DNA of 64,000 bases. It comes from an uncultured Pseudomonadaceae bacterium (lineage in GTDB: Bacteria > Pseudomonadota > Gammaproteobacteria > Pseudomonadales > Pseudomonadaceae). Shown piece by piece: positions 13,731-32,873 of this stretch. The DNA lies in the NCBI GenBank assembly GCA_937876625.1, contig CALEGN010000311.1:3454-67453 (forward strand). The letters are read 5' to 3'. Both the position numbers and the translations under genes were made by a program. The notes under the pieces were generated by a model. That model saw nothing but the letters and a program-made list of their open reading frames with translations. It was not told where the DNA came from and did no database searches. Position 1 is the first letter of the stretch. Each line of letters opens with the position of its first letter.

Positions 13731-13783
13731 TAGCCTGTATCCGCTATGTTGAGGTCATCGACACAGGGGGTGCAGGCTTTCTC

Positions 13784-14287: not shown

Positions 14288-14347
14288 GCATATGGCTTGC
14301 ATATGCCCTTGCATGCAGCTACATTGTGCATATGTCGAACATATGCC
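14288..14347. promoter_or_regulatory. Candidate vapBC promoter/operator with reiterated GCATATG / CATATGC motifs
   Basis: GCATATG at 14288, 14299 (as the palindrome GCATATGC) and 14328, plus the inverted copy CATATGC at 14340. All lie within 75 nt upstream of the vapB ATG. Confidence 0.35.
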
Positions 14348-14360
14348 GGAGTCGCAAGTA

Positions 14361-14998: not shown

Positions 14999-15181
14999 GA
15001 GGAAAACCTCGATGAAGCTCGAAAAGATGACACTTTATTTGTATGTCAACTGGCGAGCCTGCCGTCCTGAGCACACTCACCTAGCATTAGGATGAGACTT
15101 TAGGTGCAGATTGAGGTGTAAGGCTCCCAGCCAGCCCAGCAAACTCATTCGCACCGGATGCAACTTTATTTGCATCCCACA

Positions 15182-15787: not shown

Positions 15788-17861
15788 TCAGGTGTTCCGG
15801 ATAGGAGAACTGCGAAAGCGCCTGCTGTGGTCCGGCACCGAGCAGGCCATCTGGATCGATATCGATTCGGACACGGCGTTGCCCGAGCCGATATCGGTTG
15901 CAGAGCTGGAGCGTCTGCTCATGGAGCGGGAGCTGGAGAGCATTGTCGATCCCTTCGAGGAGACAGTCCTACGGGAGGCTGTGGAAGATTCTCTTGATCA
16001 GCAGAAGCGTGATGAGGCTTGGGCAATGGTGGCGGATTTTGTGCACGATCCCCAGCTTTTCGTGCGGCGTCCCAGAGGACTCATTGTCAGAGGCATCATG
16101 GAGCGCCATGGTGTTACCAAGCAGACGGTGTATAGGTTACTGAGGCGCTACTGGCAGCGAGGCATGTGCAGGAACGCCCTCTTGCCGGACTATGTCAACT
16201 CGGGCGCCCGTGGCAAGCGCAGAAAGCCGAGCCAGGCCAAGCTGGGCAGGCCCCGAGTGGTGATGGAGGGGAAAGGGAGCAATGTCACGCCGGACATCGA
16301 GCGCATTTTTCGTCGGGTCATCGAGGAGCGCTTGCTCAAGGAAAAACATCCGTCCATTCCGGATGCCTACGCCTCCGGGCTGAACCTGCTCCGTGCTGTT
16401 CTGTCGCAACTACCGACCTCAGAACTGCCTACATTGGGGCAGTTCCGTTACTTCTATGGGCGCGAGTATCACTTCACCGACACCTTGCCATGCAGGGTGT
16501 CCGCAGTGGATTTTGCCAAGGACTTCCGGCCGCTCAGCAGCACATCAACGACCGAGGCACTTGGGCCTGGATACCGCTACCAGATAGATGCCACCATCGC
16601 CGATATCTATCTGGTTTCAGAACATGATCGCAGCCTTATCGTCGGCAGGCCTGTCGTTTACATGGTGATCGACGTGTTCAGCCGCATGGTCGTTGGCATG
16701 TACGTCGGATTCGAGGGGCCTTCCTGGGTCAGTGCCATGGTGGCATTGGCCAACACGGTCGCCGACAAGGTTGAGTATTGCCGCCAGTATGGCGTGGAGA
16801 TCGATGCCAGCGACTGGCCGGTCAAAGGCTTGCCGGATGTGGTGCTGGCCGATAAGGGCGAACTGAATGGCACCAAGGTGGAAGCATTTTCCCAAGCCTT
16901 CGGCGTTCGCATCGAGAATGCACCGGCCAAGCGAGGAGATGCCAAGGGGATCGTCGAGCGTTATTTCCGGACGGTGCAGGAGCGTTTCAAACCCTATGCC
17001 AGCGGAGTGGTCGAGGACACTACCAGCCGGAAGCGGGGTGGCCACGACTACAGGCTTGATGCCAGCCTGACCTTGCCTGAATTTACCCAGATCATCATCG
17101 CCGGCATCCTCCACCACAACAACTTTCACACCTTGAGCAAATACGACAGGACCTCTGGTATGCCGGGCGATCTGCCAGCCATTCCGGTCATGCTGTGGAA
17201 CTGGGGCTTGGCTAACCTGACCGGTCGGCTACGTACTGCGCCCGAGGAGCTAGTGCGGATCAATCTTTTGCCCCATGAGTCGGCCACGGTTTCGGAACTG
17301 GGAATCAGGCTGTTCGGCTGCTTCTACAGCTGTCAGGAAGCAATCAGGGAGGGGTGGTTCCACCGAGGTCAGGGGCGCCGGCCTACAGGGGTAACGGTCG
17401 CATACGATCCGCGTAGCGCCGACCACATCTACCTGCGGCCGTCCAATAGCCTCAAGGACTACTGGGTTTGCGATCTTGCCGATCGTAGTCGGCGCTTCAG
17501 GGGGATGACCTTCTGGGATGTCTGGCTGCTGTCCAGAGAGGAACGACGTAGCGATACCAAGGCAGCTGCACAAGCTTTGGTAGAGAAGGGTAATCTTCTG
17601 AAGCAGATCGAGTCCATCATTGCCCAGGCAGAGGATGCAAGTCCGGTAAAAACGGGTATGACCAAGAAGGATCTGGGAACCCAGATCCGCGAGAACAAGC
17701 AGCAGGAAAAGCGCCAGGAACGCCAGAAAACAGCATTCAAACCGGAGAAAATACAGCAGGAAAAGCCGGCGGAGGTGATCCCATTGCGGGGAGAGAAGCA
17801 GGAAGACTATGCCTTCCCGGGTCTTAGCGACCTGATATTCAAGGAGGAAGAGGATGACTGA
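15774..17861 (+). CDS. tnsB: Tn7 transposase TnsB (DDE, Mu/retroviral-integrase superfamily)
   Basis: VTKQTVYRLLRRYWQRGMCRNALLPDY, YQIDATIADIYLV, VIDVFSRM, LADKGEL, RGDAKGIVERYFRT. Collinear with Tn7 TnsB. GTG start at 15774 overlaps the tnsA end; exact start uncertain. Confidence 0.95.
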   Translation: MLPVNQVFRIGELRKRLLWSGTEQAIWIDIDSDTALPEPISVAELERLLMERELESIVDPFEETVLREAVEDSLDQQKRDEAWAMVADFVHDPQLFVRRPRGLIVRGIMERHGVTKQTVYRLLRRYWQRGMCRNALLPDYVNSGARGKRRKPSQAKLGRPRVVMEGKGSNVTPDIERIFRRVIEERLLKEKHPSIPDAYASGLNLLRAVLSQLPTSELPTLGQFRYFYGREYHFTDTLPCRVSAVDFAKDFRPLSSTSTTEALGPGYRYQIDATIADIYLVSEHDRSLIVGRPVVYMVIDVFSRMVVGMYVGFEGPSWVSAMVALANTVADKVEYCRQYGVEIDASDWPVKGLPDVVLADKGELNGTKVEAFSQAFGVRIENAPAKRGDAKGIVERYFRTVQERFKPYASGVVEDTTSRKRGGHDYRLDASLTLPEFTQIIIAGILHHNNFHTLSKYDRTSGMPGDLPAIPVMLWNWGLANLTGRLRTAPEELVRINLLPHESATVSELGIRLFGCFYSCQEAIREGWFHRGQGRRPTGVTVAYDPRSADHIYLRPSNSLKDYWVCDLADRSRRFRGMTFWDVWLLSREERRSDTKAAAQALVEKGNLLKQIESIIAQAEDASPVKTGMTKKDLGTQIRENKQQEKRQERQKTAFKPEKIQQEKPAEVIPLRGEKQEDYAFPGLSDLIFKEEEDD

Positions 17862-19464
17862 AGGATTCCCGCGCGCAGTTATTCCCCTGGCGCGTTACCA
17901 AGAGCAGCAGCTTCCCGAGTATCAGGACAATCCGCTCATCAGCGCATTGCCTCCGATTCCTGATTTGCAGGAGGTAGTCGGTCTATTGCAGCAGCTTCCC
18001 GGTTTTGAGCCGCAGGAGGCGCATCTGGATGGTCGGCTCAGGGCTCATGCGATTGCCCGTCTGTTGCATGGTTTCTTCCAGCCGCTGAGCCATCACTTGG
18101 AGCTGGAAAGCAAGATCAGCCTGATGATCCGTCAGGGGTACATCGGTCGGAATCCGGCCAGCGGTGCCTGGTATGCGCATCTGCAGAATGGCTATCGTCG
18201 TGTCGAGGAGGAGGATCTGGATGCGGCGGTGTACCAGAGTGTCTCTTCTACGGCCAACAGTCTATCGCTGTTCGGTTGTTCCGGTTGCGGCAAGACGCGC
18301 ACGCTGGAGCGGATCCTGGGTATGTATCCCCAAGCTCTCCATCACCCTGAATACAACATCACTCAATTGGTCTACCTGAAGGTCGACTGTCCCATTGACG
18401 GTGACCTAGATGAACTGTGTCTGAGCTTCTTCAACGAAGCAGACAAAATACTGGGCACCCACTACAGCCGTAGCCACGGACGCAAGAAGCTGGGTACTAA
18501 ACGTCTGCTGGCATCCATGTGCCAGGTAGCCAATCTGCACGCGCTCGGAGTGCTGATCATCGACGAGGTTCAGAACCTCAACGAGGCACGCTCCGGTGGT
18601 GCCGAGAAAATGCACAATTTCTTCGTGTCGCTGGTGAACACCATAGGTGTTCCGATCATTCAGGTTGGCACCCACCGGGCCAGTAAGTTCTTCCAGCGTA
18701 CTTTCCGGGCTGCTCGGCGGGTCTCCGGGCTGGGTAGCATCCGCTGGGATAGATTGCCTCAGGACGAGCACTGGAGGCGTCTGTTGAAGCGGCTCTGGAA
18801 GTATCAGTGGCTGCGAAATGCGGCGCCGCTGGATGACGAACTAGAGGCGACCATGTACGACCTCACTCAAGGGGTCATGGACATCGTCATCAAGCTGTTC
18901 GCGCTGGCTCAGATTCGGGCAATAGTGACAGGGATCGAGTGCATCAAGCCGCTGTTGCTGCGCAGGGTTTTCGAGGACGAGTTCAAGCCGGTCCATCCGA
19001 TGCTGGCGGCTTTGCGGAGTGGTAGACCTGAACTGATCGCCAAGTATGACGACCTGCTGATGCCTGAGATCGAGGGACGGTTGCTGACCCTGACGCGCTC
19101 ACTGGATCACGTCGCTCAATCGAAGCCGCCGGCCCCTCCGGCTGATGACAAGGCGAAGCGGCTGGCAACTCTGCTCGAAGATATGGAAATCCCGAGGGAC
19201 ATCGCCATTCCCATGGCCGATGAATTGCTGACGGAAAATCCGGACATCCCGTTGGCAGTCCTGATTCATAAGGCCACGGCCTACCTCGCGCAGGACGCTC
19301 CCAAGAGGCCTGGAATTTCCAGGGTTAAGCGTACGCAGTGGGGGTGTTTATCCGAGGAGGATCTGCGTCGACGTTATGCCGATGGGCCTGAGAGCGAGGC
19401 CTATGAAAGATTCAAGCAGGCTGGCCTGATCTTCGATCTGCGACCTCTGCTGAGGGCAAGCTGA
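17854..19464 (+). CDS. tnsC: Tn7 AAA+ regulator TnsC
   Basis: Walker A GCSGCGKTRT, Walker B LIIDEVQNL, and NPLISALPP, MIRQGYIGRNP, VHPMLAALRSG, all collinear with Tn7 TnsC. 8-nt overlap with tnsB. Confidence 0.95.
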   Translation: MTEGFPRAVIPLARYQEQQLPEYQDNPLISALPPIPDLQEVVGLLQQLPGFEPQEAHLDGRLRAHAIARLLHGFFQPLSHHLELESKISLMIRQGYIGRNPASGAWYAHLQNGYRRVEEEDLDAAVYQSVSSTANSLSLFGCSGCGKTRTLERILGMYPQALHHPEYNITQLVYLKVDCPIDGDLDELCLSFFNEADKILGTHYSRSHGRKKLGTKRLLASMCQVANLHALGVLIIDEVQNLNEARSGGAEKMHNFFVSLVNTIGVPIIQVGTHRASKFFQRTFRAARRVSGLGSIRWDRLPQDEHWRRLLKRLWKYQWLRNAAPLDDELEATMYDLTQGVMDIVIKLFALAQIRAIVTGIECIKPLLLRRVFEDEFKPVHPMLAALRSGRPELIAKYDDLLMPEIEGRLLTLTRSLDHVAQSKPPAPPADDKAKRLATLLEDMEIPRDIAIPMADELLTENPDIPLAVLIHKATAYLAQDAPKRPGISRVKRTQWGCLSEEDLRRRYADGPESEAYERFKQAGLIFDLRPLLRAS

Positions 19465-19465
19465 C

Positions 19466-20964
19466 ATGTACTTCCCCAGGCTCTACCCGGACGAACTGCT
19501 CTACAGCGGTATTGCCCGGTGTCGAGTACATCTGGGGATTGGCAAGCACAAGACTTTGCTGCACATGCTTTTCGGTGACAGCAAGGTTGCCGCGATCACC
19601 GATCTGCCAACACACCTGACAGCTCTGGCGAACAATACTGGTCTTGACCCAACAAACGTGATCAAGAATCACACTCTGTTCCCGCTCTATGCCCCTTTCA
19701 TTCCGCCGGAGCGCCGTACCGATCTTTTTCAGGCCATGCTAGCTCCCAACCGGACGACGATTGGCCTGTCAGGGGCATCGACGGCCTTGGTCAAATGGCC
19801 CGAGTGGCTGCGTTACTGCCCGGTTTGCTTCGAGGGCATGGCGGCTCGTTTTGGTGAGCCCTACTGGCGGCGTAGCTGGCAGATCCAAGGGATAGATGCC
19901 TGTGCAGAGCATGGCTGTCAGCTCCTGAACTCACCCATCCCATTCCGTCGAGCGCAGCGGCATGAGTTTCATCCAGCCTCTCCACTGTTTCTGCCTCGTG
20001 ATCTTCGCGTGACCCCCGCGGGCGAAGAGGCTATCAGGCTCGCCAAGGCTGCTATGCAGTTGCTGGCGCTCGAAGAGGTGCAATCGCCTACGGGTGCTGG
20101 ACCAACCTGTACCGGTACCTGGCTACAGAGTGTGGCGCCAGGCGCGGCCGACAGGTCAGGGCTGAAGTCATTTGGGAGAAGGTCTTGGCATCCAATCGCA
20201 GGGATTGGCTTGCTGCTAACGGTCTGCTGACATCCGGAGAGTGTCCACCTTGGCTGTTTGCGATGTTCAGGAAGCATCGCAAGGGATTCAGTGCTCTGCA
20301 GCATCTGATTGTCTGGACCAGCCTGCGCCCTGGTCAGCATGTTGGCTCGCTGATCAGTGAAGCGAATACTCACCAGATCGACCTTGCCTCCGAGCGGTCA
20401 GTGCAGATGCTCCCTGCTGAGTTTGAGCATAAGCAGCAATACCGAACCATTTGGCTGCGAGCACTGGCTTATCACGGTGGAGCCAAAGCAGCCAGGCAAG
20501 ACGGAGCAGGGGCATGTTATGCCTAGCTTTATCGTCATGACCGACATTGGTTGATGGTTACGAACCAGGTCAGGCAGCACCGACAGGGCAACAACAGCCA
20601 CATCGACTGGGGAGCGCGCGACAGAAGGTTGGTGCGCCTGCTGATCCGGATTGGCAGAGGTAGTGAAGAAGACCTGGGCTTTCCGCGCAGGAGCCGCAAC
20701 TGGTTCCTGCAGCAGCTACCCCATCGGGCATCAGTTGAGCACCATCTCGGTCAACTGCCTCTGTGCCGCGCTTTCCTGGATCGCTATGCCGAGTCTGTCG
20801 GCGAGTATCAGATCCGTCGCCTGACTGCAGCGATGCTGGAGGATGTACAGACAGGCATAACGTCCAGGCGCTGGGAGCTGGAAAAGCGTTGTGGATTGGA
20901 AAAAAGCAGGATGGTACCGCTGACCACTGCGTTCGTTAGATTGATAGGAAGATGGATTGAATAG
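19466..20964 (+). pseudogene. tnsD: tnsD (TniQ-family attTn7 target selector), inactivated by one frameshift and one amber codon
   Basis: N-terminal TniQ domain with CPVC...CAEHGC. The frame switches near 20085-20092 (…EEVQSP | AYGCWTNLYRYLATECG…). TAG at 20524-20526 interrupts …CYA*LYRHDRHWL…, where Tn7 TnsD has YAWLYRHDRDWL. Total span is 1499 nt, one short of a multiple of 3. Confidence 0.85.
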
Positions 20965-22579
20965 GACTGTATTTCGTCAGATCCCGAACGGATCCAAATT
21001 ACTGGCCGTTGGAAATTTTTTCAGGGCCCCGACTCCGACAGCCGAGTGGCGCTTGGCGGCTCTCTTTGAGCGTAACGGTCAGTTGCAGCTGCAGCAGTTC
21101 GCAAAGGAGATGTCGTGTGTCTTGGCTGTTGGTCGCGAGTTTCTTGGAGACGAAGGGCCTCCCTACCGTCCTAGTGGTTTCAAGAAGACCGTGGTGCTTC
21201 CTGCAATAGATACCTGGCGGGAGCGGCAGTTGGGTGAGTGTCCACGTCTGGCCAGAAAGCTTGCTGCAAATCCTGAGATATCAGGACAGCGATGCTTTGT
21301 GTTTGAGGTCGATGGTCTGACCGTCTGGTTGCCGAAATTCGAGCTGGCGCGAAAAATGTTCTTCCACGCAGCCTTTATCGTGCGTGCAGCCTTCGAACCG
21401 AATGGCTTGGACATGGCCTTCACGCTCTACAGAGAGGACGATGTTGTTCATATCCATACGCCCGCGAAGACAGGTGCACCAAGTCAGCTTCTCAAAATCA
21501 GGGGATACCGAGACCATTTCAGTTGGCTGCTGCTGAATCAGGATGTGAAGCGATCCTTCGAGTCAATCTGGCAAAGCCTCAACCAAGGGCAGGAGCGGGT
21601 ACCGCAAGGTTCGGCGTATGCCAGGTGGCAGTTCGACTTTCAGGCACCCCCTTCCCTCGCGGGTACCTCCATGGATGTACGAGGTCCCTTTGATCCGGAA
21701 AGCAACGAATTGCTGGTCTGGGAGATCGAAAAGCTTCAGGGGCTCCGGTTTACCCATCGTGGCGATGTTTTTTTCCACCACCCTGCTCTCAAGTTACCAG
21801 TCAGGGGGGAAAAAACAGACTGTGTATCTGTGCCATCGGGAGCTGAAGAAGTGGAGGTGGATGCTGATGAAGAGCCAACGGCTGCCAAGGAGCAGAGGTT
21901 GATTCATCTGCCCGTTGAGGGAGTTACGTTTGATGCTCAGATGCGCACCAAGATCGCCTACAGCGGGGAGCGTGCCAACGGTCATGGCAAGATGGTCGAC
22001 GATGAGCAATGCCCGAGCAGAGAAAGCCAACTCTTCGGCGTGGCTGATCCTGTGAGCGAGGGCAGCATAGCGTCAGGAGAATTCCAACAATTGGGTGAGG
22101 GAGAGGGTGATGGGGACGAGCATGAACGGCTTGCAGATCGCTTCTCGCTGCTCCGAGAGATTCTTGAACAAATCACCCAAGAGTCTGGAGTTGCGCTGGT
22201 AGCACTGGAAGTGAGGCCTCTGCCGCCCGTTCCACGTTGCAGCTACCACATGATCGATCACGAAAAATCACGCTGTTATCTGCTGGCAAGGTTCAAGCTG
22301 CAAAACGGCGATCAACGCTACCTTCTAGAAATAGATACCTCAGACAACCGGAAGACCATGTCAACGCGGATCATGGGCTTCAAAGCAGGTGTTGAGGCAG
22401 GAAAATGCATAGACAGGATCTTGAGGGAGACAGTGAAAGGCTCGTTGCGTTGGCCAGGCACCATGGCGAAGTACTGTGAGCCTTTGCACTCTGTGCATCA
22501 CCCGAAAGAAAGCTCATCTGGGGCCAACCATACCAGGGTGTTCGACTGGAAGCAGCGCATACGCGCTGCCCTGAGCTGA
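20957..22579 (+). CDS. tnsE: TnsE (alternative target selector)
   Basis: FELARKMFF, SWLLLNQDVKRSFESIW, WQFDFQAPP, YLLEIDTSDNRKTMSTRI and GSLRWP...HHPK parallel Tn7 TnsE (LELARSLFL, VWLFSDQDVMDSYESIF, FSFDPPP, VLLEVDASDGVKMLSTKV, SSLNWP...NHPK). 540 aa against 538 aa in Tn7. TTG start per the track. Confidence 0.85.
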   Translation: MNRTVFRQIPNGSKLLAVGNFFRAPTPTAEWRLAALFERNGQLQLQQFAKEMSCVLAVGREFLGDEGPPYRPSGFKKTVVLPAIDTWRERQLGECPRLARKLAANPEISGQRCFVFEVDGLTVWLPKFELARKMFFHAAFIVRAAFEPNGLDMAFTLYREDDVVHIHTPAKTGAPSQLLKIRGYRDHFSWLLLNQDVKRSFESIWQSLNQGQERVPQGSAYARWQFDFQAPPSLAGTSMDVRGPFDPESNELLVWEIEKLQGLRFTHRGDVFFHHPALKLPVRGEKTDCVSVPSGAEEVEVDADEEPTAAKEQRLIHLPVEGVTFDAQMRTKIAYSGERANGHGKMVDDEQCPSRESQLFGVADPVSEGSIASGEFQQLGEGEGDGDEHERLADRFSLLREILEQITQESGVALVALEVRPLPPVPRCSYHMIDHEKSRCYLLARFKLQNGDQRYLLEIDTSDNRKTMSTRIMGFKAGVEAGKCIDRILRETVKGSLRWPGTMAKYCEPLHSVHHPKESSSGANHTRVFDWKQRIRAALS

Positions 22580-22795
22580 TCGCAATGTGCGCCGCAGTTC
22601 GGCTGCGACACAACTTGTCGCGAGCTGTGTGTAGCCTCATCGGGACTTACTGGCGCCGTGCCCTGGCGATGTAGGCACGGCTGGCCACTGGCTCCCGCTT
22701 GGTCGAGAGGTTAAGGTTCTCCACCTATCAAGATATCCAGCAGGGACGCGGCGTTCAGGCGCTCTCCCGGCCTCTGTACACAGGGAGAAGATGGC

Positions 22796-25700
22796 ATGGG
22801 CAAGAAGTCCCGAGAGAAGCGGGAGCGGAGGCTTGCACGAATGGAGGCCGACCATGGCCTTCTGTTGCAGGAGATGCTCGGGTTTCACGGGAAAATCGCT
22901 TACGAGAAAGATCAGGGACATTCATTTCGTAAGCGTCTCGAGGCGACCCGTGCGTTACTTCGCCAATATGAGCGTCTCGACGCAGCGATTGCCTTGAGTG
23001 TCTCCGAGCTATGGCTGGCCAATGCTGGAAGCCCTATCAAGCATATTTTCGCCTGGGGTGTTCTGCTAGATCTTCCGCACGATGACCAAGGCGGGATGCC
23101 AATCGCTAGCTATGCAGATTTCAAAGCGTTTGCAGAGGCACTGTACGAGGCATGGCCCGAGTTCCCGATGCTTGAGGACTTCTCCTCCGAGGCCGACTGG
23201 GGTGAAACCAAAGTACGCCTTGGCCAAGCTTTCGTTCCGATGTTCTACGGTAGCTGCATTGAGCGCACACCTGACTTCGTAGAGGCATTTCGCATCACTT
23301 ACGCACAGGTTCCAGAGGCACAAGCCCACATGGACCTCGCCATCGCATTGCAAGCACGGATCATCGAGTCGATGCTCGACCTGGGGGGCGCCCCCGCTGG
23401 GGAATCACAGCAAGCCCACGTCGAGGTGCCTCCCGAGGACTTTTGGCTGGCTTGTAGGTTAACGCTTCAGCAAATCGGTACCGATATTGCCGACTGGCGA
23501 GACAAGGCAAGGGGAGCACTCGATACTCGCTTTGGTGCTTTCAAAGCGCCGCTGACATGGCGCGCTTTCGGCGATGCGGTAATGCAGGGGGTGGCCCTCC
23601 CCTTTCTAGCGGTCGAAAGCGACGGCACCTGGGTGCCTATGTCGGCTCGTAACGCTCCTGGAGTCGTTGTTGACCATTGGGCCAACAACGCAATGGTTGA
23701 GGTCGGCGCTCATACGCATCGCAGGCTTGCCCTGTTCGTTGCCGAGCGATTTCCAAGGACGGTCGTGGGGCCTCTGGCGCTCGTCATTGGTGGCTCCATC
23801 TGTGAAGAGCTCCCTATCAGTTGCGTCATCTCAGCCAACTCTGGTGTGTATCTCATTTGCGCATGTGACCACGCATCGAATGAGCGGCTGTCAATCGCAG
23901 CGAAAGACGTGTACGGCAAAGTGAGGCGCGGCGCGCCGATCCACTTCCGTCTCGCAGACGGGCGCGGACTCATGTTATCTAAAGATGGAACCAATGGACC
24001 TAGTGCAGATGAGCTTCGAATAGTCATTGTGGTCACCCAAGCCGGCACTGCATTGGGCTCCATATCTGCGCCCGAGCGGCCCGCGCGCCTACTGCCGTTA
24101 GCGGACTTCATTACCATCTTCGACAGTTTGAGTGATCTCGACGAATTGGAGTGCTACTGGGAGTTCGTCGACTCTCAGAGAGGCTCTCTTAGCCTCTTCT
24201 CGAGCGGGCCTGCCGACTTGTATGCGTCATTCAAGGACACAAATGGCGTACTTGTCGAAGGGGCGATTTCCCCCACTCTTATCGGACTGGATCCTCACTG
24301 GGGCACTTCTTGGCGCTTCAAGGCACTTGCTGACTTCTGGTCGCGTGCACCAAGCGTTTTTCCTGATGGCTCTGTGGGCTGGCGGCTGAGCAATGGAACT
24401 AAAGGTGTCGTTGATCTCCAATCGCGCCATCACAAGGCAGTGGCATACTCAACATCTGTCGGCAGCTGCACAATTCAAACCCTGGTGGAAATCTCTGAAG
24501 GTCTGGGAATCGAGGATGCCCGCATGCTCGACCTCTTCGCCCAACTCCTTGCGGATTGCACCTATCGTTGCCGTGAGCTGATGTCGGACATCCCGCTGTT
24601 TCGGCAGCAGCATGTCCTGTTCATCTGTGGGCTCGCCCACTCTAGCTCTGTTGGCAATGATGAAGCTCCTCAGCCAATAGAGGGATTCGAGCGGGCAGTA
24701 ATTTCAGCGGAAGAGGATGCAGCTCGTAAGAGCATATTGCATCTGCAGGTCGACGCTCGTGCAGTGCTTGCAGGCCTAAACGCGGCCAAAGACGGCTCGT
24801 TCGAAGTTCGATGCTTACTGGAGACACTCGAAAGGTGTCACGACGTGTGTGGGCTGGAGTTGCCCATCGGTTTTGGAGAGCGGCTACGTGGCAGAGCATC
24901 GGAGCCGGCTCGCTACCACTTGAGGGTCGCTGCCCGAAACGTTGATGTCCCTGACTACGTGGAACCCGTAATCCCCTCGCCCGCTAACTACAAGCTTGCT
25001 CGCAAGCATTTGGCGGCCGAAATCATGGCGCTCGATTTGGCTCCAGGGCGCTATGAGCTTTCCGATGCCAAGGCAAGAATTGATCCTGCTGGCGCTCGTT
25101 TGCGTCTTCACATCGAGAATCGGCTGGCATCGCTCGACAGGTACCAACTTCTCCGGGCTTTCATTGAGCAGCACGATGCGCTTCTTGTAACCGAGAGGAT
25201 GAAGATTCAGCGCACCCGTCAGAGCCTAGCTCATGATGTGGACTACGACAGGCTAGAGGCCATTGAACAAGCCCGCAAAGACTACGGCTCCGTAGCTCGT
25301 CACTACCGATACCTACTGGAGAAAACTGTTAGCTCGCCGGCAACCGGTACTGAGGACGCCACTGACGATGTACTGCGTGAGCTGGTTGGCCTGGTTGACT
25401 GGTACATGGTGCTTACAGGGGCCAGCGACGTCCTTCACAACGGCATCGACGTTGGTGGCGTTGAGATTGACGACTCGTACATTCCAGAGGTCTTCTACTC
25501 GACTGGAGCCGATGACCGTGAGGCGGAATTTGCACGCGAGTATGCGAAATCAAGGCTAGGGCTTGGTGCAAACAGCGAAGATGCTGTGGAGGGTGCATCG
25601 GAGGACTTGCTGTCTTCAGAGAAGTTCAAGAGTGCTTTTGCAGCTGACGTGGGGTTTGACCTGCAAAATCTAGTCACTGCTCTCGCAGTTTTGTCACAAG

Positions 25701-26593
25701 CGCAAAGGTACGGGTTTGGCGATGAGCTCTCGCTATCTTATGCCGCTTCTCCAAGCCGCGTCGCGCAAGGACTGGCCGACAGCATTGAGATGCTTGATTT
25801 TGCCGAGGCGGAAAGGATAGTGACGTTCCTCACTCTTTCGGAGCAAGGCGTTCGCAGGCTGTCCGGAAGGAGTGTCGACGAGATCGATGTTCCTTACTGG
25901 GAGCACAGTAAGCGAATCCATCGATACGCGATCAGGCCGCTGGTTGTCGATGGCACAAACTTGCGTTGGGGAGCAGAGACGGTCAGTCGGTCGATGTACA
26001 ACTGGATGTCAGCAGTGCGGGACGGCTACCTCCCTGCGGACTTCGATTGGCCCCATGTCCAACCAGTCATACGGGAGGTCAAGGAGAGTATCGAGAATCG
26101 GCTGGAGCTCCGCACCGAGGAGATATTCCTTCGGCACACTCCATTCGTTCATCGAGGCATCGACTTTTTCCGGAAGTTCCGCAGCGAGGGGTTCGAGGAC
26201 GTCGGGGACTTCGACGTATTCGCTTATTGGCCAGATGCGAACCTACTCGTGACCGTGGAGTGCAAGTACAACCAGCCGCCCTACACAGTGAAAGATGGCC
26301 GTCGACTCCGTGACCGAATATTCGGCAAAGCTGAGGACGACAAGGCTGGGCAGTTCAGTCGAATTCTTCGCCGAAGGCAGTTTCTCGAGAAAAACCGCGC
26401 AAGGACGCTTGAGCTGTTGAAGTGGCCGAAGTCGGAGGCCAAGCCTTTCCGGCATGTGGAGCTCTACGTGAGCCGTGACGTGTACTACTGGATGGTTCAT
26501 CCGCCGTACCCTGTTCCGACCAAGTTCGTGCGAGTGGACACACTGGATACCTGGATCAAGACCGAGCTCATCACGTCTCGCCCCCATGTCTGA
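22796..26593 (+). CDS. Cargo gene A: 1265-aa uncharacterised protein with a C-terminal PD-(D/E)xK-like nuclease motif
   Basis: GGGAGA (22783-22788) lies 7 nt before ATG 22796. No P-loop seen. Near the C-terminus, GDFDVFAYWPDANLLVTVECKYNQ (about 26204-26275) fits a D...E-x-K restriction-endonuclease-like core. The rest is not recognisable to me. Confidence 0.85.
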   Translation: MGKKSREKRERRLARMEADHGLLLQEMLGFHGKIAYEKDQGHSFRKRLEATRALLRQYERLDAAIALSVSELWLANAGSPIKHIFAWGVLLDLPHDDQGGMPIASYADFKAFAEALYEAWPEFPMLEDFSSEADWGETKVRLGQAFVPMFYGSCIERTPDFVEAFRITYAQVPEAQAHMDLAIALQARIIESMLDLGGAPAGESQQAHVEVPPEDFWLACRLTLQQIGTDIADWRDKARGALDTRFGAFKAPLTWRAFGDAVMQGVALPFLAVESDGTWVPMSARNAPGVVVDHWANNAMVEVGAHTHRRLALFVAERFPRTVVGPLALVIGGSICEELPISCVISANSGVYLICACDHASNERLSIAAKDVYGKVRRGAPIHFRLADGRGLMLSKDGTNGPSADELRIVIVVTQAGTALGSISAPERPARLLPLADFITIFDSLSDLDELECYWEFVDSQRGSLSLFSSGPADLYASFKDTNGVLVEGAISPTLIGLDPHWGTSWRFKALADFWSRAPSVFPDGSVGWRLSNGTKGVVDLQSRHHKAVAYSTSVGSCTIQTLVEISEGLGIEDARMLDLFAQLLADCTYRCRELMSDIPLFRQQHVLFICGLAHSSSVGNDEAPQPIEGFERAVISAEEDAARKSILHLQVDARAVLAGLNAAKDGSFEVRCLLETLERCHDVCGLELPIGFGERLRGRASEPARYHLRVAARNVDVPDYVEPVIPSPANYKLARKHLAAEIMALDLAPGRYELSDAKARIDPAGARLRLHIENRLASLDRYQLLRAFIEQHDALLVTERMKIQRTRQSLAHDVDYDRLEAIEQARKDYGSVARHYRYLLEKTVSSPATGTEDATDDVLRELVGLVDWYMVLTGASDVLHNGIDVGGVEIDDSYIPEVFYSTGADDREAEFAREYAKSRLGLGANSEDAVEGASEDLLSSEKFKSAFAADVGFDLQNLVTALAVLSQAQRYGFGDELSLSYAASPSRVAQGLADSIEMLDFAEAERIVTFLTLSEQGVRRLSGRSVDEIDVPYWEHSKRIHRYAIRPLVVDGTNLRWGAETVSRSMYNWMSAVRDGYLPADFDWPHVQPVIREVKESIENRLELRTEEIFLRHTPFVHRGIDFFRKFRSEGFEDVGDFDVFAYWPDANLLVTVECKYNQPPYTVKDGRRLRDRIFGKAEDDKAGQFSRILRRRQFLEKNRARTLELLKWPKSEAKPFRHVELYVSRDVYYWMVHPPYPVPTKFVRVDTLDTWIKTELITSRPHV

Positions 26594-29500
26594 GAACATC
26601 AAGAACACTGCAATCACTGCAGCCGGCTACATTTACCAGAATCGGCAGGGCCTCAAGGTTCTATGCGATTGGCTCGACGCGCCGGCTCGCTACAGTCGGG
26701 TGAAATTCGAGTGCGACGACGAAACAGAAGCGCCGCAGGGGCTGGACGATCTCGTCATCGAGCGGAGTGATGGCCTCGTTGACCTTCAGCAGGTCAAATT
26801 CACCCCGAATCCTGAGGCACATCCTCTTTCCTGGGATTGGATGCTCGAGAAGTCCGGCAAGACCGACCGGTCGAGGTCGATGCTTCGTAAGTGGTTCGAC
26901 GCTTTCAAGAAGCTCGATCCCGCGCGCATTGGCGAGCTCTCGCTCACAACAAACCGCCGGCCGGATGCCGCCATTGAGGCCTGTTTGGATGCTGGCAGGA
27001 TTTCCTTCGCCAAGATCCCTGAGCCACAGCGCTCGGAGGTCATCGCAGAGATTGGCAGCGCAGAAGAGTGCGAGGTTTTCTTCAGCCAGTTGCGCATCCG
27101 GCACAGCGACAAGGGATACGTTGCGCTGGAGCACGAAGTCGCTTCGCGCCTTCGGCTGCATGGCACCGCTGAAGGTATCGCGAACCTCAAGGTCGTGGCC
27201 CTGAACTGGGCAACGCAGAAGAGTCTCCCGGCTCCTGATGGCTGGATCACTCTGGAAGAGGTTCGTGCCATCCTCAGGGCGTTGCCGCCTGCGCCTCTGC
27301 CAGAGGACTTTGTGGTCCCGAAGGGGTACGAGGTGCCCGATGCGACGTTCCACGAGGAGTTCGTCCGGGACGCGATCAATGCTGCTGGCAAGGCGATCGT
27401 TCTGACGGGACCGCCCGGCCGTGGAAAGAGCACTTATCTGAGCGCGCTGTGCGACTCTCTCGCCGAACAAGGCATCCCGACGGTCCGCCATCACTACTTT
27501 CTCTCGACGACAGAGCGTGGGCGTGACCGGGTGAACAGCTACGTGATCGAGCAATCCATCAGCGCGCAGGTCGAGCAGTTTCACGAGGGCGTCGCGAGGG
27601 GGCCTGGGGGGCTGCGTGTGCTCCTGGAGGCGAGCGCCTCCCACTACAAGGGGCTGGGCAAGCCCTTCGTGCTCGTCCTAGATGGTTTGGATCACGTCTG
27701 GCGCATCAACGCTCACGACAAGCGGCCGTTGGACGACCTTTTTTCCCAACTGATCCCTTGCCCGGACAACATGGTACTGCTCGTCGGCACTCAACCTGTG
27801 GATGACGCCCAGTTGCCGACGGATCTGCTCGCCTCAGCTCCGAAGGTCGAGTGGCGCACGTTGCCCGCGATGTCTGAGAACGCAGTCCTTTCCTTCCTTC
27901 GTAGGGCGGTTAAAGAGGGCAGGCTCACGACAGGCTGCGAGAATGAGAGACAGGCTGAAGAACAACTACAAGATGCAGCATCCGCGCTCCGCTCAAGAAC
28001 CAATGGCCACCCCCTTCATGTTATTTACGCGGCTGCAGAGCTAGAGCATGCAGGGCGAAATCTGTCCCGCTGGGATGTTGAGAAGTTGAAAGGGGATCTG
28101 AGCCAAGATGCCAAGTTCTACTATGCATCGTTGTGGGAGAGGCTTCCACCAAGCCTGAAGGACGTGCTGCGGCTCGTCTGCGCCTTCCCGTTTTTCTGGC
28201 CGAAAACTGCGTTTTCTGAGATAGCTTCTGCAATCAAGATGACGGTGCCCGAAGTTGGGAGCGTGGAGCATCTGCTTCATTCATCAGCAGCAGGACTGAA
28301 GGTCTTCCACGAGAGTCTGGCGGTCTTCGTGCGCTCGACAGCAGACTACGAAGCACGTATCACGGAGCTGATGCCAGTGGTCGCGCGCTGGCTCGAGTGC
28401 TCTGCTCCCACCTCGCTACGCGTCAACTGGCTATGGACGGTTCAAGCGAAGCTGGGTGCCCCCAAGAACCTCATCACGGGGCTCACCCGTGACTGGATCA
28501 TGCTGCGGCTTGAGGAAGGGTACCCAGAGTCGTTGTTTGACACCTTGCTATCAGATGCCTTGGTTGCAGCGCTCCAGACTGCCGAATTCGCAGATGCTTA
28601 TCGTCTGCTGCATCTCAAGGCCCGGATGGTTGGTGGCAGCGAGTACCAGATGCAGAGCGACGATCTGGCCAGGCTCATCTCCTTCACGTTGACGCTAGCT
28701 GTGGAGGAAGGCGTAGTACGTGAGGCCGTTGCCTCCAGACATGAGACTGACATCCTGCACGTTGCCGCGCTTGGGCTGGCCCTGCGCGCTCGTGGGGACC
28801 AGATTTTTGCTGAAACATGCGGTGAAGAGGCGCTTCGTCGGTTCAGGGGCTTGAGCCGATTCTCCAGCAGATACGTGTCGGGCACTGGAGCTGATGAGCT
28901 CAAGTTCCTAGTCGACGCATTCGCTCGACTTGGCGCCATCGGTGCCACTCCTGAGTCGCTCGCCAGGTTGGTGGTTGATAACAGCCCGGTCGTTTGGCTG
29001 CCTCGTGTCCAGATGCTGGTAGAGGAGGGCAACCTGGATGACTTGATGACGGTTGTTGCTTCGCTTTCCAGAGGGGAGAGAAAGAACATCATTAGTGATG
29101 CCTGTGTACGTGCGGCAGCGAAGGCGGGAGTAAGTATTGCAGAGCGCGATGACTTCAACGAGCTTGCCCGAACTCCCTTTGTTGCTGCCGTGGAGGCGGT
29201 GCTCACACGTTCCTCCAAACCGCTGAATGAGCCGATCCCTGTGGAGTGGCTGAAGGGCGACTACTCCGAGCGCAAGGAAGATCTGGCGGCACTCGCGCAC
29301 CACTGGTTCTTCAGCGCTGTGCATCTGGGTCTGTGCATGGCCGCAGAGGGCCAGACTGCCTTCGAGTATGCGCGAGCCCCAATCTATGAAGGCAGAGAAA
29401 ATATAACCGGCTTCCTCGATGCGCTCTCTGATGTCGCTGCCCAAGTTGCGCTTCGCTGGTGGCGCGGAGAGTTTGTGGATTTCCATGAGCTTTTCGCGCT

Positions 29501-31010
29501 GCTTGAGCCAGTAGAGTTCCGATGGTTCAGGCAGAGCCATGACTGGAGTTGGGCGGCTGATGATTTCAGACGGGCATTGCCTTGCATCGCTTGTGACATC
29601 TACCTCGGTAGCACCTTGCTGAAGGGGTGTGATGATGTAGATATGACTGCGGAAACCATGCATGCAGCAGGCCAGTGTGTCTGGTTTGACGGAGCATCAT
29701 TCTGCGCTCAGTACGCAGCCAGCACACTTACTCGAATGACCGACGAAGCGGCTGCGATGCTTGTTCAGTCGCAACGATCATTATTTGATGAGGACGTTGA
29801 GGAGGAGACCAGTGTTCGCCTCCAGACGCCGTTGCAGCTTTGCGCGATTGCGCTGGCTCACAATTTGATGCCGGAAGCGCGAGAACTCTGTAAGCAGACT
29901 TGGGAGTTAACTACCGGCTTTGCACACCGTAAAGACCCGTCGCTGAACAACACAGTTAACGCAATCGGCTACCTGGTAGACGTTGCGCCAGCGGATGCCT
30001 GCCGGTTGCTCGGTATGATCGCGCCGCAGATCCATCATGTTCTGAAGTACACGGATGGAAAGGGCACGCGTCATGTTCTGGCGCAGGCTGATCGGTTGCT
30101 GGCGAAGCTGAAGCCTGCGGCACTGGTAATCAAATATGAGGAGCACACGCACGAGGGCGACTGGTCGCTGGCAGAGGACAGTCTGCAAGCATACGTGGAG
30201 CAGGGGGTAAAGGAGGGTTGGTCTCTGGATGCACTGATGCGTACAGGGCTCCACTCTGGAATACAGGATACACTTCAGCAACTGGCTCAAGAAGGCAGTG
30301 CAATCGCTGCAAAGCAGCTCCAAGTTCTCCAAGAGTATGCCGGTTGGGATCTGGGTTTATTGAGGCATCAAGAGCGTTCTGGAAGTGGCCTAGATGGCAA
30401 GCCTTATGATGGCGACGTCACGACCTTTACGCCCGAACAACTGAATGAGCTGCTCGCTAGTTTGTCAGGGAGTAACTACGGCGAGCGCGATGAGCTTCTT
30501 CGTGCCTGGTATCTGCACTGGGAAGCTCAAGGCCAGGGCAGGAGATTACTCGGTACACTCGACGACCTGCTTCTCTCAGAAGAGGGACGGCAAAAGGACG
30601 TACTGGTCTTATCCGATCTTGCCTTCCACACTCGGCGCAGGCTGAGCGGAGTGAAAGCAGCATGGAAGTATCTTGTCCGTGCTCAGATCCTGAGCGGCGG
30701 GTGGATCGGTTATATGGAGCATGAGGCCAAGACCTGTAGCAGGCTTGACCTGGTTGTTAAGCACTATCCGACGCGCTGCGACGAGTTCGTTGTCGAGACA
30801 ACCTATGGCATGTTCAAGGACCCGGTGCCGTCGCGTGTCGCACCCAACGATGCGATGGTCTATTTCTATGTGCGGCAGGGGCGAACTGAGAAAGCCGTGA
30901 GGTTTGCAGAGACTATGGTCAATTGCATCATTGAGGATACTCGTACCCTCCCACTTGAGCCCCCTCGCTGGGCGACTGAGCTGGCCTTGCCCTCCATGTC
31001 GGAGGTTTGA
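26586..31010 (+). CDS. Cargo gene B: 1474-aa Cap4/DUF4297-like nuclease + STAND (NACHT-like) NTPase + long helical C-terminal region
   Basis: ATG 26586 overlaps the gene A stop (ATGTCTGA). N-terminus: AAGYIYQNRQG...VKFECDDE...DDLVIERSDGLVDLQQVKF (GYxYQ / E / DD / QxK pattern). Walker A LTGPPGRGKST (27408-27434). Walker B FVLVLDGLDHV (27666-27695). About 1100 further residues are helical with no obvious repeat family. Confidence 0.85.
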   Translation: MSENIKNTAITAAGYIYQNRQGLKVLCDWLDAPARYSRVKFECDDETEAPQGLDDLVIERSDGLVDLQQVKFTPNPEAHPLSWDWMLEKSGKTDRSRSMLRKWFDAFKKLDPARIGELSLTTNRRPDAAIEACLDAGRISFAKIPEPQRSEVIAEIGSAEECEVFFSQLRIRHSDKGYVALEHEVASRLRLHGTAEGIANLKVVALNWATQKSLPAPDGWITLEEVRAILRALPPAPLPEDFVVPKGYEVPDATFHEEFVRDAINAAGKAIVLTGPPGRGKSTYLSALCDSLAEQGIPTVRHHYFLSTTERGRDRVNSYVIEQSISAQVEQFHEGVARGPGGLRVLLEASASHYKGLGKPFVLVLDGLDHVWRINAHDKRPLDDLFSQLIPCPDNMVLLVGTQPVDDAQLPTDLLASAPKVEWRTLPAMSENAVLSFLRRAVKEGRLTTGCENERQAEEQLQDAASALRSRTNGHPLHVIYAAAELEHAGRNLSRWDVEKLKGDLSQDAKFYYASLWERLPPSLKDVLRLVCAFPFFWPKTAFSEIASAIKMTVPEVGSVEHLLHSSAAGLKVFHESLAVFVRSTADYEARITELMPVVARWLECSAPTSLRVNWLWTVQAKLGAPKNLITGLTRDWIMLRLEEGYPESLFDTLLSDALVAALQTAEFADAYRLLHLKARMVGGSEYQMQSDDLARLISFTLTLAVEEGVVREAVASRHETDILHVAALGLALRARGDQIFAETCGEEALRRFRGLSRFSSRYVSGTGADELKFLVDAFARLGAIGATPESLARLVVDNSPVVWLPRVQMLVEEGNLDDLMTVVASLSRGERKNIISDACVRAAAKAGVSIAERDDFNELARTPFVAAVEAVLTRSSKPLNEPIPVEWLKGDYSERKEDLAALAHHWFFSAVHLGLCMAAEGQTAFEYARAPIYEGRENITGFLDALSDVAAQVALRWWRGEFVDFHELFALLEPVEFRWFRQSHDWSWAADDFRRALPCIACDIYLGSTLLKGCDDVDMTAETMHAAGQCVWFDGASFCAQYAASTLTRMTDEAAAMLVQSQRSLFDEDVEEETSVRLQTPLQLCAIALAHNLMPEARELCKQTWELTTGFAHRKDPSLNNTVNAIGYLVDVAPADACRLLGMIAPQIHHVLKYTDGKGTRHVLAQADRLLAKLKPAALVIKYEEHTHEGDWSLAEDSLQAYVEQGVKEGWSLDALMRTGLHSGIQDTLQQLAQEGSAIAAKQLQVLQEYAGWDLGLLRHQERSGSGLDGKPYDGDVTTFTPEQLNELLASLSGSNYGERDELLRAWYLHWEAQGQGRRLLGTLDDLLLSEEGRQKDVLVLSDLAFHTRRRLSGVKAAWKYLVRAQILSGGWIGYMEHEAKTCSRLDLVVKHYPTRCDEFVVETTYGMFKDPVPSRVAPNDAMVYFYVRQGRTEKAVRFAETMVNCIIEDTRTLPLEPPRWATELALPSMSEV

Positions 31011-32452
31011 TGGACGAGCTTCGCATTCTTGTTGCCCGCCTCGGATGGCCTTCTACGTCCGCACGGTGGTGGGCTATGCAGGAGCTGGCGGCCTGGCTGG
31101 GCTTTCCTGCTATGCGGGCCGAAACTGAGGCTGCGTTGTTTCAGTTGTTGCGCTCGCGCAAGCTTGAAGCCGAGGTTATCGAAGCTCTCTGCATCTTCTG
31201 GATGGCAGCACAGGGACATGGCTACTCACCTGCACTAGAGCTTGCCGATAGCATCCCGAAGCCATCCCTGCTTTCAGACTTGCTTGTGGCGGATCTTGGG
31301 CTGCCGATTCAGGCTGGCGATATGGGCTTGAAGGAGGTGCCTCATGACTTTGTAGTTCCAGATGACTTCGATGGTGTGCAAGGCGTCGATTTGCCAAGAA
31401 TTTTCCATACGTCCATGAGCAGGCTCGAGCACTATTCTGGACTTCCTTTCGTCCGGCAGATGGCTTTTGAGTGGACTGAGAATCGAGCAGCTTATCCAGA
31501 TGTGCCATACCAAGGGGACATGCGGCACTTCACGCTACCACTCGGTAACGGTTTTAGTGTCCATCTTTCTGCGCGCGCAGCCCTTCGCGCCATTTCTGCG
31601 TACCTTCGTACTCTGGCAGTGGCAAGGCAGTTTTGGGAAATGCCGACAGGATTGGCTCATGAAGAGTCGCTTTTGGCCCTGCCGCTCCATCCGACTCTGG
31701 CTTTACTTAGGCCGCAGCGCCCGGACTGGTTCCCAGCATCGAGAGGGCTCGATGGGGATGCTGAGTCAGTCGAAGCTGCAATTCGAGCACTCCCTGCTCG
31801 TATTGGGGCAGTTCGTCCGGGTGACGAGCTCATCGCTTTCAGCTCGCCAATCGTGATATCTGAGGAACGATGTGTAGAGGTTTCCCTCGTGCGGTGGTCG
31901 CAGGCTGCTGGTAGTAGCGTTAACGATGCGGATTTGGCTGCGTATCTCGATGCTTTCTGGATGCGTGGGCCGATGTTCTCCAGCGCAGCGTCAGATCCTC
32001 TCAATACAATCACCATGGTAGTTCCAGCAGCTCTCGAACGACTGATGGATGACAGCTGCCAGGCTTGGCCTTTGGCTGGAGCGCTCGGCTACGAGCGGAT
32101 GGGATATCTCCAGCATGATTTATATCCATCGCGGCTCTTCTTCCCGACGATGTCTGGTTTGCATGAGCTTGAGATCACACCTCGTGATGGGCAGCTAGAA
32201 GTCAAGGTAGAGGGTCAGGTTGTTGCTGATCTTTGCTATTGGAACGCAGGGTGGGGGCCAGCACGACCAAGGCAGCTTGGTGGAAATTGTGGGACGGCAC
32301 TCACCTCTCGAGGCACGGCCTACCGCGAGGGAGCTGGTTCTGAAAAAGGACCGCTGCGCGCGTTCTATCTTTGGCAGGTGCGTACGCTGCACCGTAGCAG
32401 CAGCTTTGGCGAGTTCAGCGAAACACTAGCGACTGGCGCAATATTCGTTTAG
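31010..32452 (+). CDS. Cargo gene C: 480-aa uncharacterised protein
   Basis: ATG 31010 shares one nt with the gene B stop (TGATG). Uninterrupted 480 codons in the same compositional regime as A and B. No motif I can assign. Confidence 0.8.
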   Translation: MDELRILVARLGWPSTSARWWAMQELAAWLGFPAMRAETEAALFQLLRSRKLEAEVIEALCIFWMAAQGHGYSPALELADSIPKPSLLSDLLVADLGLPIQAGDMGLKEVPHDFVVPDDFDGVQGVDLPRIFHTSMSRLEHYSGLPFVRQMAFEWTENRAAYPDVPYQGDMRHFTLPLGNGFSVHLSARAALRAISAYLRTLAVARQFWEMPTGLAHEESLLALPLHPTLALLRPQRPDWFPASRGLDGDAESVEAAIRALPARIGAVRPGDELIAFSSPIVISEERCVEVSLVRWSQAAGSSVNDADLAAYLDAFWMRGPMFSSAASDPLNTITMVVPAALERLMDDSCQAWPLAGALGYERMGYLQHDLYPSRLFFPTMSGLHELEITPRDGQLEVKVEGQVVADLCYWNAGWGPARPRQLGGNCGTALTSRGTAYREGAGSEKGPLRAFYLWQVRTLHRSSSFGEFSETLATGAIFV

Positions 32453-32648
32453 TTCGCTCGCTGTAGGCTGATAACGCCGAGCCGCATCGCCACCTGGAGT
32501 TCGGCACGCATCGATCAGGCGGCCATCGTGGGGGCAGATAGTGGAGATCGAGACAGGCAATATTGATCTTACTTGTACGTTTTTAGAGGAAGGGGGTTTT
32601 ACGCTATCCCCCTGCTCCCAAGGGCTCGGAAGCTGCCTGGTCATTAAT

Positions 32649-32868
32649 AGGATGAAACTTTATTTTCACGATTTTCGGCGTTGACCGAAAATCAGGATGG
32701 TACTTTAACGCCTTTGATCGTCACCCCGGCAAAGGCGCGGTGAAGTACCTGATCATGCTTTTTAGTCGTGTAAGTCATTGTTTTTAAACATTTGTCTGAG
32801 GATTAAACGCTCATCGTGATTCCCCATCTGCTCCCAGCGTTAGGATGAGATTTTATTTTCATCCCACA
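32649..32868 (-). repeat. Tn7-type left end with dispersed TnsB-site repeats
   Basis: AGGATGAAACTTTATTTTCA (32649-32668), degenerate AGGATGGTACTTTAACGCC (32694-32712), and terminal AGGATGAGATTTTATTTTCATCCCACA (32842-32868). Three spaced sites are typical of a Tn7L-type end. Confidence 0.8.
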
Positions 32869-32873
32869 ACTGT

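Follow-up and report, generated by a model that had tools for sequence, protein, structure and literature searches.

A Receptor in Two Pieces: Genes That Probably Encode a Split Avs Protein Beside a Upx Homologue on a Tn7-Like Element

What kind of receptor does a long open reading frame in the genome of an uncultured Pseudomonadaceae bacterium encode, and does that frame contain the whole of it? The gene in question, gene B, lies in a stretch of 64,000 nucleotides (GenBank assembly GCA_937876625.1, contig CALEGN010000311.1, positions 3,454 to 67,453), here called the window. An earlier reading of the letters, made without database searches (the sequence-only reading), described gene B as a Cap4/DUF4297-like nuclease fused to a NACHT-like STAND NTPase and a long helical region, and took it for a pattern-recognition NTPase that oligomerizes on binding a ligand and unleashes the nuclease. 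A structural model and profile matches support this three-part plan. The receptor, however, does not end where gene B ends: gene C, immediately downstream, supplies the distal part of the sensor, a piece that was missed. We consider it likely that the products of genes B and C are the two polypeptides of a single Avs receptor, structurally of the Avs1/Avs3 type, with a homologue of the antiphage protein Upx (gene A) as its neighbor on a Tn7-like element. Coordinates are collected in Table 1.

The reading frame claimed for gene B is real. It opens at a GTG at 26475; the ATG at 26586, where start and gene A stop share nucleotides (ATGTCTGA, 26586-26593), gives the protein of 1474 residues, and the TGA stop occupies 31008-31010. 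The motifs listed by the sequence-only reading are present as well, two of them with corrected ends. GYIYQ lies at 26625-26639, the acidic motif GLDD at 26739-26750, and the Walker A sequence GPPGRGKST exactly where it was placed, at 27408-27434. QQVK spans 26787-26798, the 26790-26798 first given for it being QVK only, and the Walker B sequence FVLVLDGLDHV spans 27666-27698, three nucleotides beyond the end (27695) assigned to it. The gene B family counts over 1000 homologues, which clustering at 50% reduces to 850 representatives; it is conserved over its full length down to about 25% identity, and keeps D54, D55, Q69, K71, G278, G280, K281, S282, T283, D366, G367, L368, D369 and H370 invariant in 70 diverse sequences. 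Given this conservation, these invariant residues and the NACHT score reported below, the motifs are not mere chance matches. In the databases the homologues carry generic names such as 'ATP-binding protein' and 'NACHT domain-containing protein'.

The N-terminus of gene B is a predicted Cap4-type PD-(D/E)xK nuclease, an assignment that holds at the level of the family and is weak for the window copy alone. With the Pfam model PF14130 (Cap4_nuclease) the window copy stays under the cut-off of 26.2 bits, both as the whole protein (E = 0.11, 13.1 bits) and as the isolated N-terminal domain (E = 0.0053, 17.4 bits). The same model matches 18 of 27 diverse N-terminal domains of the family at E <= 0.01, the best at E = 2.9e-10. 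The PADLOC model of LmuA matches residues 4-127 of gene B (E = 1.1e-6), and distant relatives of gene B match the CBASS Cap4-type (SAVED-PDDEXK) models. A profile of the nuclease domain matches the N-terminus of PDB entry 9n00_A (E = 8e-4), aligning GxxYQ, DDVV and QxK, the last of these being QCK in 9n00_A. The putative catalytic residues, D54/D55 (26745-26750) and Q69-V-K71 (26790-26798), show no variation in any of three alignments (27, 40 and 70 sequences). The Cap4/DUF4297-like nuclease of the sequence-only reading is therefore upheld for the family, with the window copy by itself falling below the Pfam threshold.

Gene B is a member of the NACHT clade of STAND NTPases: it has the profile match, the Walker motifs, the winged-helix histidine and the C-terminal sensor. 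A Pfam profile search, which had been proposed as a check, places NACHT (PF05729) on residues 271-442 with E = 2.2e-10 and 41.1 bits, above the curated cut-off of 26.7. GPPGRGKST and VLVLDGLD are invariant in the 70 sequences, and the winged-helix H575 (28308-28310) is invariant too. The Avs1b model of PADLOC covers residues 253-681 (E = 4.3e-9, 32 bits). We built an AlphaFold2 model of residues 1-1200 from the 70-sequence alignment; in it, the module consists of a nucleotide-binding domain (NBD, residues 253 to about 420), helices at 431-533 and a winged-helix beta-hairpin at 564-573. Two further features are invariant across the 70 sequences, the most divergent of which have 24% identity. 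One is the triplet R301-H302-H303 (27486-27494), which comes after the strand following Walker A; the other is DGLDHVWR (27681-27704, D366-R373), which extends Walker B. To our knowledge, neither the triplet nor the extension belongs to the generic NACHT signature.

What, then, is the long region that follows the NTPase? In the model (mean predicted local distance difference test, pLDDT, 88.7; predicted template modeling score, pTM, 0.82), a mixed alpha/beta domain (residues 1 to about 235), the P-loop NBD, the helical domain and the winged helix are succeeded by unbroken helices from 588 to 1200. The sequence-only reading had described a helical remainder without recognizable repeats, and the part covered by the model agrees: residues 431-1200 are helical, and no Pfam repeat family matches the sensor region. 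A Foldseek search of the PDB with this model, the structural comparison with Avs proteins that had been called for, returned as its top match chain A of 8DGC, SeAvs3 in complex with a terminase from a phage (1391 aligned columns, E = 4.6e-18). The second match, at 1.7e-7, is eleven orders of magnitude behind, and the remaining ones are generic STAND and AAA+ proteins (CED-4, Apaf-1, ORC, MalT and plant NLRs). With SeAvs3-terminase as its best structural match and Avs1b as its best defense hidden Markov model (HMM), gene B fits the pattern-recognition logic proposed for it; oligomerization and release of the nuclease would follow by analogy with its relatives.

The end of gene B leads directly into gene C. 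The ATG of gene C, at 31010, overlaps the TGA of gene B (TGATG; GTTTGATGG). We surveyed 87 fetched related loci, detecting gene C homologues by tblastn, and wherever one is detected, which is in nearly all of them, it lies directly 3' of gene B. The gene B frame continues into gene C for 465-491 residues in 31 of the 87 and stops within a few codons in 47; fusion is thus the state of about 40% of related loci. In a fused protein from Duganella (1953 residues), residues 1473-1953 match gene C at 67% identity. The lengths of the best 150 representatives tell of the same two forms: 71 have 1400-1560 residues and 43 have 1850-2020. The AlphaFold2 model of gene C (pLDDT 88.6, pTM 0.90) has a helical N-terminal half and a beta-rich C-terminal half, and its only significant structural matches in the PDB are chains A and B of 8DGC (E about 3e-5). 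Together B and C amount to 1954 residues, compared with 2028 for the SeAvs3 chain of 8DGC. On the strength of the fusions, the overlapping junction, the shared 8DGC match and the summed length, we conclude that one receptor of Avs3/Avs1 shape is encoded in two pieces, by genes B and C.

Gene C belongs to a well-conserved family (76% mean column identity), of which the window copy is a full-length member, and it matches nothing in Pfam, PADLOC or NCBIfam. In NCBI records its homologues (P0199, P0222, P0226, P0263, P0275 and others) widely go by 'multidrug DMT transporter permease' or by 'DMT family permease'. Because gene C has no family match and its soluble-looking model resembles part of SeAvs3, this name appears to be a propagated error.

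The split is not distributed evenly over the family. In a distant clade, at about 33% identity (Shewanella, Photorhabdus, Enterobacter and others), the two parts are almost always fused, whereas in the clade of the window they are mostly split. Three loci of the close clade (L009, L019 and L037) are nevertheless fused, while L008, L010 and others are split, all of them 70-82% identical to gene B. Fused genomes within a mostly split clade imply recent fusion or fission at the B-C junction, on more than one occasion. Sequencing or assembly artifacts in metagenome-assembled genomes could account for some of the close-clade fusions. One copy appears rearranged or degraded: on the plasmid unnamed6 of Klebsiella sp. 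WOUb02 (L045), gene B is matched over residues 1-704 only and gene A over 487 residues only, and gene C lies upstream on the opposite strand. In the window, the overlapping stop and start codons of A and B and of B and C suggest that the three genes are translationally coupled.

To which group of receptors do B and C belong? The families Avs1-4 of the AVAST group were reportedly defined by Gao et al. in 2020 and 2022. Gene B can be called an Avs protein with confidence: it combines an effector, a STAND NTPase and a sensor, and it sits in a defense and mobile context. With moderate confidence we go further and identify B and C with the published split-TPR variant of Avs1, mainly on the label used in PMC13601566. 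Avs1b is the best match of gene B in both PADLOC and NCBIfam, and it also matches three of five distant fused relatives. The sensor of Avs1 is structurally similar to that of Avs3 (PMC13601566), and an Avs3-like sensor is what both models show, 8DGC being the top match of gene B and the only significant one of gene C.

Several observations weigh against this identification. The Avs1b match is restricted to the NTPase. Its score is the 32 bits quoted above for PADLOC; NCBIfam, whose equivalog cut-off is 1500, gives it 21.6 bits, and the curated Avs1b model describes a protease-type protein, not one of the Cap4 type. The assignment to Avs1 depends mainly on the label used by one paper, and we found no experiments on the split variant in the literature. 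Neither single-sequence nor profile searches of the PDB detected any sequence similarity of the sensor to a solved structure; with genes A, B and C, the PDB sequence searches returned only P-loop noise and the weak N-terminal match to 9n00. Global TM-scores to 8DGC are low (0.34-0.39), because domain orientations differ, and the models cover gene B as far as residue 1200 and gene C by itself. Finally, a scan of 22400-32900 for promoters and terminators detected no promoter-like site upstream; terminator-like sites were fewer than in shuffled sequence.

Could B and C instead be an Avs-type receptor of a distinct family, one that shares its NTPase lineage and its shape with Avs1 and Avs3 and senses another phage protein or a perturbation of the host? 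The end of the HMM similarity at the NTPase and a sensor without sequence match to anything solved are what such a family would present. Avs proteins are now divided into 90 or more families that differ in structure and in target (10.64898/2026.01.04.697583), and some NACHT proteins sense infection indirectly, via DnaJ (PMC12169576). Against this stands the choice of SeAvs3-terminase by the two models, as the best match of one and the only match of the other. Evans et al. moreover call these neighbors Avs1 (PMC13601566), and the pairing with Upx, itself a terminase sensor, fits a shared target. We therefore regard a distinct family as unlikely, though by no means negligible, and retain an Avs1/Avs3-type receptor as the better description.

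The gene directly upstream of gene B, gene A, was overlooked by the sequence-only reading. Upx senses terminase and carries a PD-(D/E)xK nuclease at its C-terminus (Evans et al. 2026, Nat Commun, PMC13601566). It is a protein of about 1245 residues with a large N-terminal sensor and a divergent nuclease whose ExK includes E1176 of SeUpx, and its homologues defend alone (PMC13601566). Judged by its sequence, gene A is a Upx homologue. It gives faint, collinear matches to the Upx models of PADLOC and NCBIfam; in the latter, residues 774-1157 align weakly with 764-1150 of the 1240 model positions (E = 0.014, 12.6 bits, cut-off 1900). In BLASTP its first 300 residues match the Gilliamella Upx WP_039128698.1 at 27% identity (E = 3e-39). 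The sequence VECK at residues 1154-1157, within the stretch aligned to the NCBIfam model, provides a putative C-terminal PD-(D/E)xK motif, the ExK being E1155-K1157 (26258-26266).

The association of Upx with Avs1 has been described. The Upx tree holds a dedicated Avs1-associated clade (legend of Supplementary Fig. 13, Evans et al., PMC13601566), and in Table S5 of the preprint of that paper the entry 'Next to Avs1' stands beside the Upx proteins of three species, Pseudomonas sp. NW5, Chitinivorax tropicus and Halomonas garicola (PMC13601566). These species match loci L050, L006 and L010 of our survey, in which the sole STAND gene seen is the homologue of gene B. For Pseudomonas sp. NW5 the correspondence is close: the N-terminal part of its Upx (WP_250010321.1, 1265 residues) printed in Table S5 is identical to gene A, and its locus (L050) is 98%, 97% and 94% identical to A, B and C of the window.

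How tight is the association? In our survey, gene A adjoins B and C in about 23 loci of the close clade. It is upstream of gene B in 22 of these (54-98% identity) and downstream of B and C in Paracidovorax anthurii (L044, 16347-20108), where the Upx homologue is 38% identical to gene A; the association has thus been kept despite a changed gene order. About 20 other close loci, that of P. aeruginosa among them, lack gene A, as do all of the distant, mostly fused ones. Since B and C occur without it in many genomes, gene A is a frequent partner and not an obligate one.

Two bolder readings of this neighborhood deserve mention. In the first, the operon of Upx and split Avs1 is a cooperative two-sensor device, or gene C is an exchangeable specificity subunit; we rate this a long shot. 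Were the operon cooperative, Upx, which is predicted to bind the locally unfolded ATPase domain of terminase, could hand over or expose an epitope for gene C. Were gene C exchangeable, it would let one nuclease-NTPase chassis be retargeted. In the second, none of the three genes acts without the others, and A, B and C are the components of an obligate system in which Upx captures or presents the trigger to split Avs1, or the reverse. The overlapping junctions, with the coupling they suggest, the position of gene A immediately 5' of gene B in the 22 loci and 3' of B and C in one more, and the dedicated clade in the Upx tree would all suit such a system. It is hard to square with the roughly one half of close loci and all the distant ones that have B and C without gene A, with the downstream gene A homologue of L044, and with Upx homologues that defend alone (PMC13601566), and we judge it improbable. 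A fixed three-gene system was rejected as our principal explanation on the ground that B and C lack gene A in many genomes.

The domain identities, the conserved catalytic residues, the split and fused forms, the gene neighborhood and the transposon context can be assembled into a mechanism for the two-piece receptor. From the published accounts of SeAvs3, SeAvs7, EcAvs2 and Avs1 we infer what triggers B and C and in which oligomeric state they act, as well as their nuclease activity and defense phenotype. The effector of gene B would be its Cap4-type PD-(D/E)xK DNA endonuclease, with D54/D55 and Q69-x-K71, and the switch its NACHT-type NTPase, with Walker A, Walker B and the winged-helix histidine. 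Gene B would carry the first 890 or so residues of an alpha-solenoid sensor, to which gene C, made by coupled translation, would add the last 480, a helical part and then a beta-rich domain. By analogy with SeAvs3 and the literature on Avs1, the joint sensor of B and C would take hold of a conserved protein of the phage, the large subunit of terminase being the most probable one. Binding would lift autoinhibition, and the ATP-bound NTPase domains would oligomerize, probably as a tetramer. The N-terminal nuclease domains would thereby be brought together, double-stranded DNA degraded and the infection aborted. Upx would be a second, STAND-independent terminase sensor with a C-terminal nuclease of its own, co-transcribed with the receptor and probably working independently of it, in parallel and on the same protein of the phage.

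The operon is the cargo of a Tn7-like transposon, another feature that escaped the sequence-only reading. On sequence grounds the element is Tn7-like: it has tnsABC, tnsD/TniQ and tnsE, TGT...ACA ends with repeated TnsB sites, and an insertion downstream of glmS. Its right end, TGTGGGATGT at 13664 with three AAATAAAG-N-TCATCC repeats, begins 24 nucleotides past the stop codon of glmS. The main element has terminal TGTGGGATG repeats and reaches to 32868 with its left end. The G+C content of the region from 14 to 34 kb is 0.56-0.59 (about 0.57), compared with 0.64-0.66 (about 0.65) in the flanks. Related loci are found in similar surroundings. In a Morganella locus (L040) the three genes lie beside tnsB, tnsC and tnsE; the Chitinivorax copy adjoins a different Tn7-like element; and other copies sit near integrases, Tn7-like genes or helicase-PLD genes.

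Two of the transposition genes are damaged. A mini Tn7-like element of 1171 bp (14011-15181; ends TGTGGGATGC and GCATCCCACA) is inserted in tnsA. Its only cargo is a vapB-like antitoxin gene (14361-14588; MazE_antitoxin, E = 7e-8) and a vapC PIN toxin gene (14588-14998; PIN, E = 9e-12). On either side of the mini element stands CATGT (14006-14010 and 15182-15186), a perfect target duplication of 5 bp, and without the mini element the tnsA frame is unbroken. The tnsD/TniQ gene appears to be a pseudogene, with a TniQ-domain frame at 19466-20230, the rest at 20185-20964 in another frame, and an in-frame stop at 20524-20526. Because tnsA and tnsD are both interrupted, the main element is probably no longer mobile alone. 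Its own flanks, GCACT on the left and ACTGT on the right, form no obvious 5-bp duplication. About 5 bp beyond its left end, in the region 32869-32900, is a second Tn7-like right end (TGTGGGATGAAAATAAAGTTTCA, from 32874 onwards), which appears to have been left behind by a previous insertion into this attTn7 site.

Is the split of the receptor itself a sign of decay, a nonsense mutation or frameshift in a once-fused Avs gene that left an inactive remnant on a dying transposon? The damage to tnsA and tnsD and the rule of fused forms in the distant clade would fit, but the same split position in 47 loci of many genera (on which ground we rejected a pseudogene artifact), a gene C that is full length and well conserved, the intact invariant residues of gene B and a TGATG overlap typical of coupled junctions make this barely credible.

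Table 1. Features of the window, from the operon to its carrier
Feature	Position	Strand	Description and basis
Gene A, Upx homologue of the Avs1-associated clade	22796..26593	+	1265 residues; overlaps the gene B start by 8 nucleotides
Gene B	26586..31010	+	1474 residues; Cap4-like nuclease, NACHT-type STAND NTPase and proximal helical sensor (Avs1-type, split form)
Predicted Cap4-type PD-(D/E)xK nuclease domain	26586..27290	+	Gene B residues 1 to about 235; family-level PF14130 matches, invariant residues
STAND NTPase module (NBD, helical domain, winged helix)	27342..28334	+	Gene B residues 253-583; Pfam, PADLOC, invariant columns, model
Proximal alpha-helical (TPR-like solenoid) sensor	28347..31007	+	Gene B residues 588-1474; model helical from 588 to 1200
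Gene C, distal sensor subunit	31010..32452	+	480 residues; helical N-terminal half, beta-rich C-terminal half
Tn7-like transposon at attTn7, with A, B and C as cargo	13664..32868	+	Ends, repeats, tns genes, G+C
tnsA	13784-14010 plus 15182-15787		Interrupted; Pfam TnsA_N/C
tnsB	15774-17861		Pfam Mu-transpos_C
tnsC	17854-19464		Pfam TniB
tnsD/TniQ	19466-20964		Interrupted; Pfam TniQ
tnsE	20957-22579		Pfam TnsE_C

What does this locus add? The window can be confidently annotated, genes A, B and C being a predicted mobile antiphage island that consists of Upx and a two-piece sensor-nuclease, probably of Avs1 type, and the database names can be corrected, both the 'DMT permease' labels of gene C and the generic ones of gene B. 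The biology is not new. The receptor is repeatedly kept in two pieces, and split Avs1 is often paired with a second, unrelated sensor that probably recognizes the same protein of the phage.

Comparison with known systems places the receptor more exactly. The nuclease domain is homologous to the DUF4297 domains of Cap4 (CBASS) and LmuA (Lamassu) and keeps their D...QxK catalytic motif; in gene B, however, it is fused to a STAND NTPase, with neither the SAVED and cyclic-nucleotide control of the one nor the SMC-like LmuB control of the other. By description, bNACHT25 and bNACHT32 (clade 6, PMC12169576) resemble gene B in having a NACHT module, an N-terminal PD-(D/E)xK DNase and a C-terminal helical domain, and their nuclease-dead D48A mutant loses defense (PMC12169576). 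They differ in sensing infection indirectly, through DnaJ (PMC12169576). The bNACHT preprint of Kibby et al. gives no clade assignment for the architecture of gene B.

Closer in plan are the Avs proteins with a Cap4-type nuclease. The solved sequence nearest to the nuclease domain of gene B is PDB 9n00, a 1523-residue 'AAA family ATPase' whose NTPase and sensor have no detectable similarity to those of gene B. From the positions of its motifs, 9n00 is probably the SeAvs7 of Lee et al. 2026. SeAvs7 has the same order of Cap4 nuclease, STAND NTPase and TPR sensor and forms a nuclease tetramer on activation (10.64898/2026.01.04.697583), but what it recognizes is the major capsid protein, and it makes use of EF-Tu (Lee et al. 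2026, bioRxiv 10.64898/2026.01.04.697583). In the part of the supplementary table of Lee et al. that was searched, six homologue accessions and the labels Avs1 and Avs3 do not appear. SeAvs3 of Salmonella enterica (8DGC) has the Cap4-type nuclease, the STAND NTPase and the long helical sensor in the same order and at a similar total length. It differs in sequence, with 11-13% aligned identity, no HMM-level match and no match of gene B to the PADLOC Avs3 model, and its sensor lies in one chain where here there are two.

The curated Avs1b of PADLOC and NCBIfam differs in its effector, being a protease-type protein of about 1930 residues, whereas the effector in the window is predicted to be a Cap4-type nuclease. 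The split-TPR variant of Avs1 next to Upx (PMC13601566) shares with the locus a STAND NTPase, Avs1b as its best HMM, a helical sensor spread over two open reading frames and an adjoining Upx. This arrangement of Upx and split Avs1 is therefore already published, in 2026, with the near-identical locus of Pseudomonas sp. NW5 among its examples (PMC13601566), a precedent for the gene order that the sequence-only reading had overlooked.

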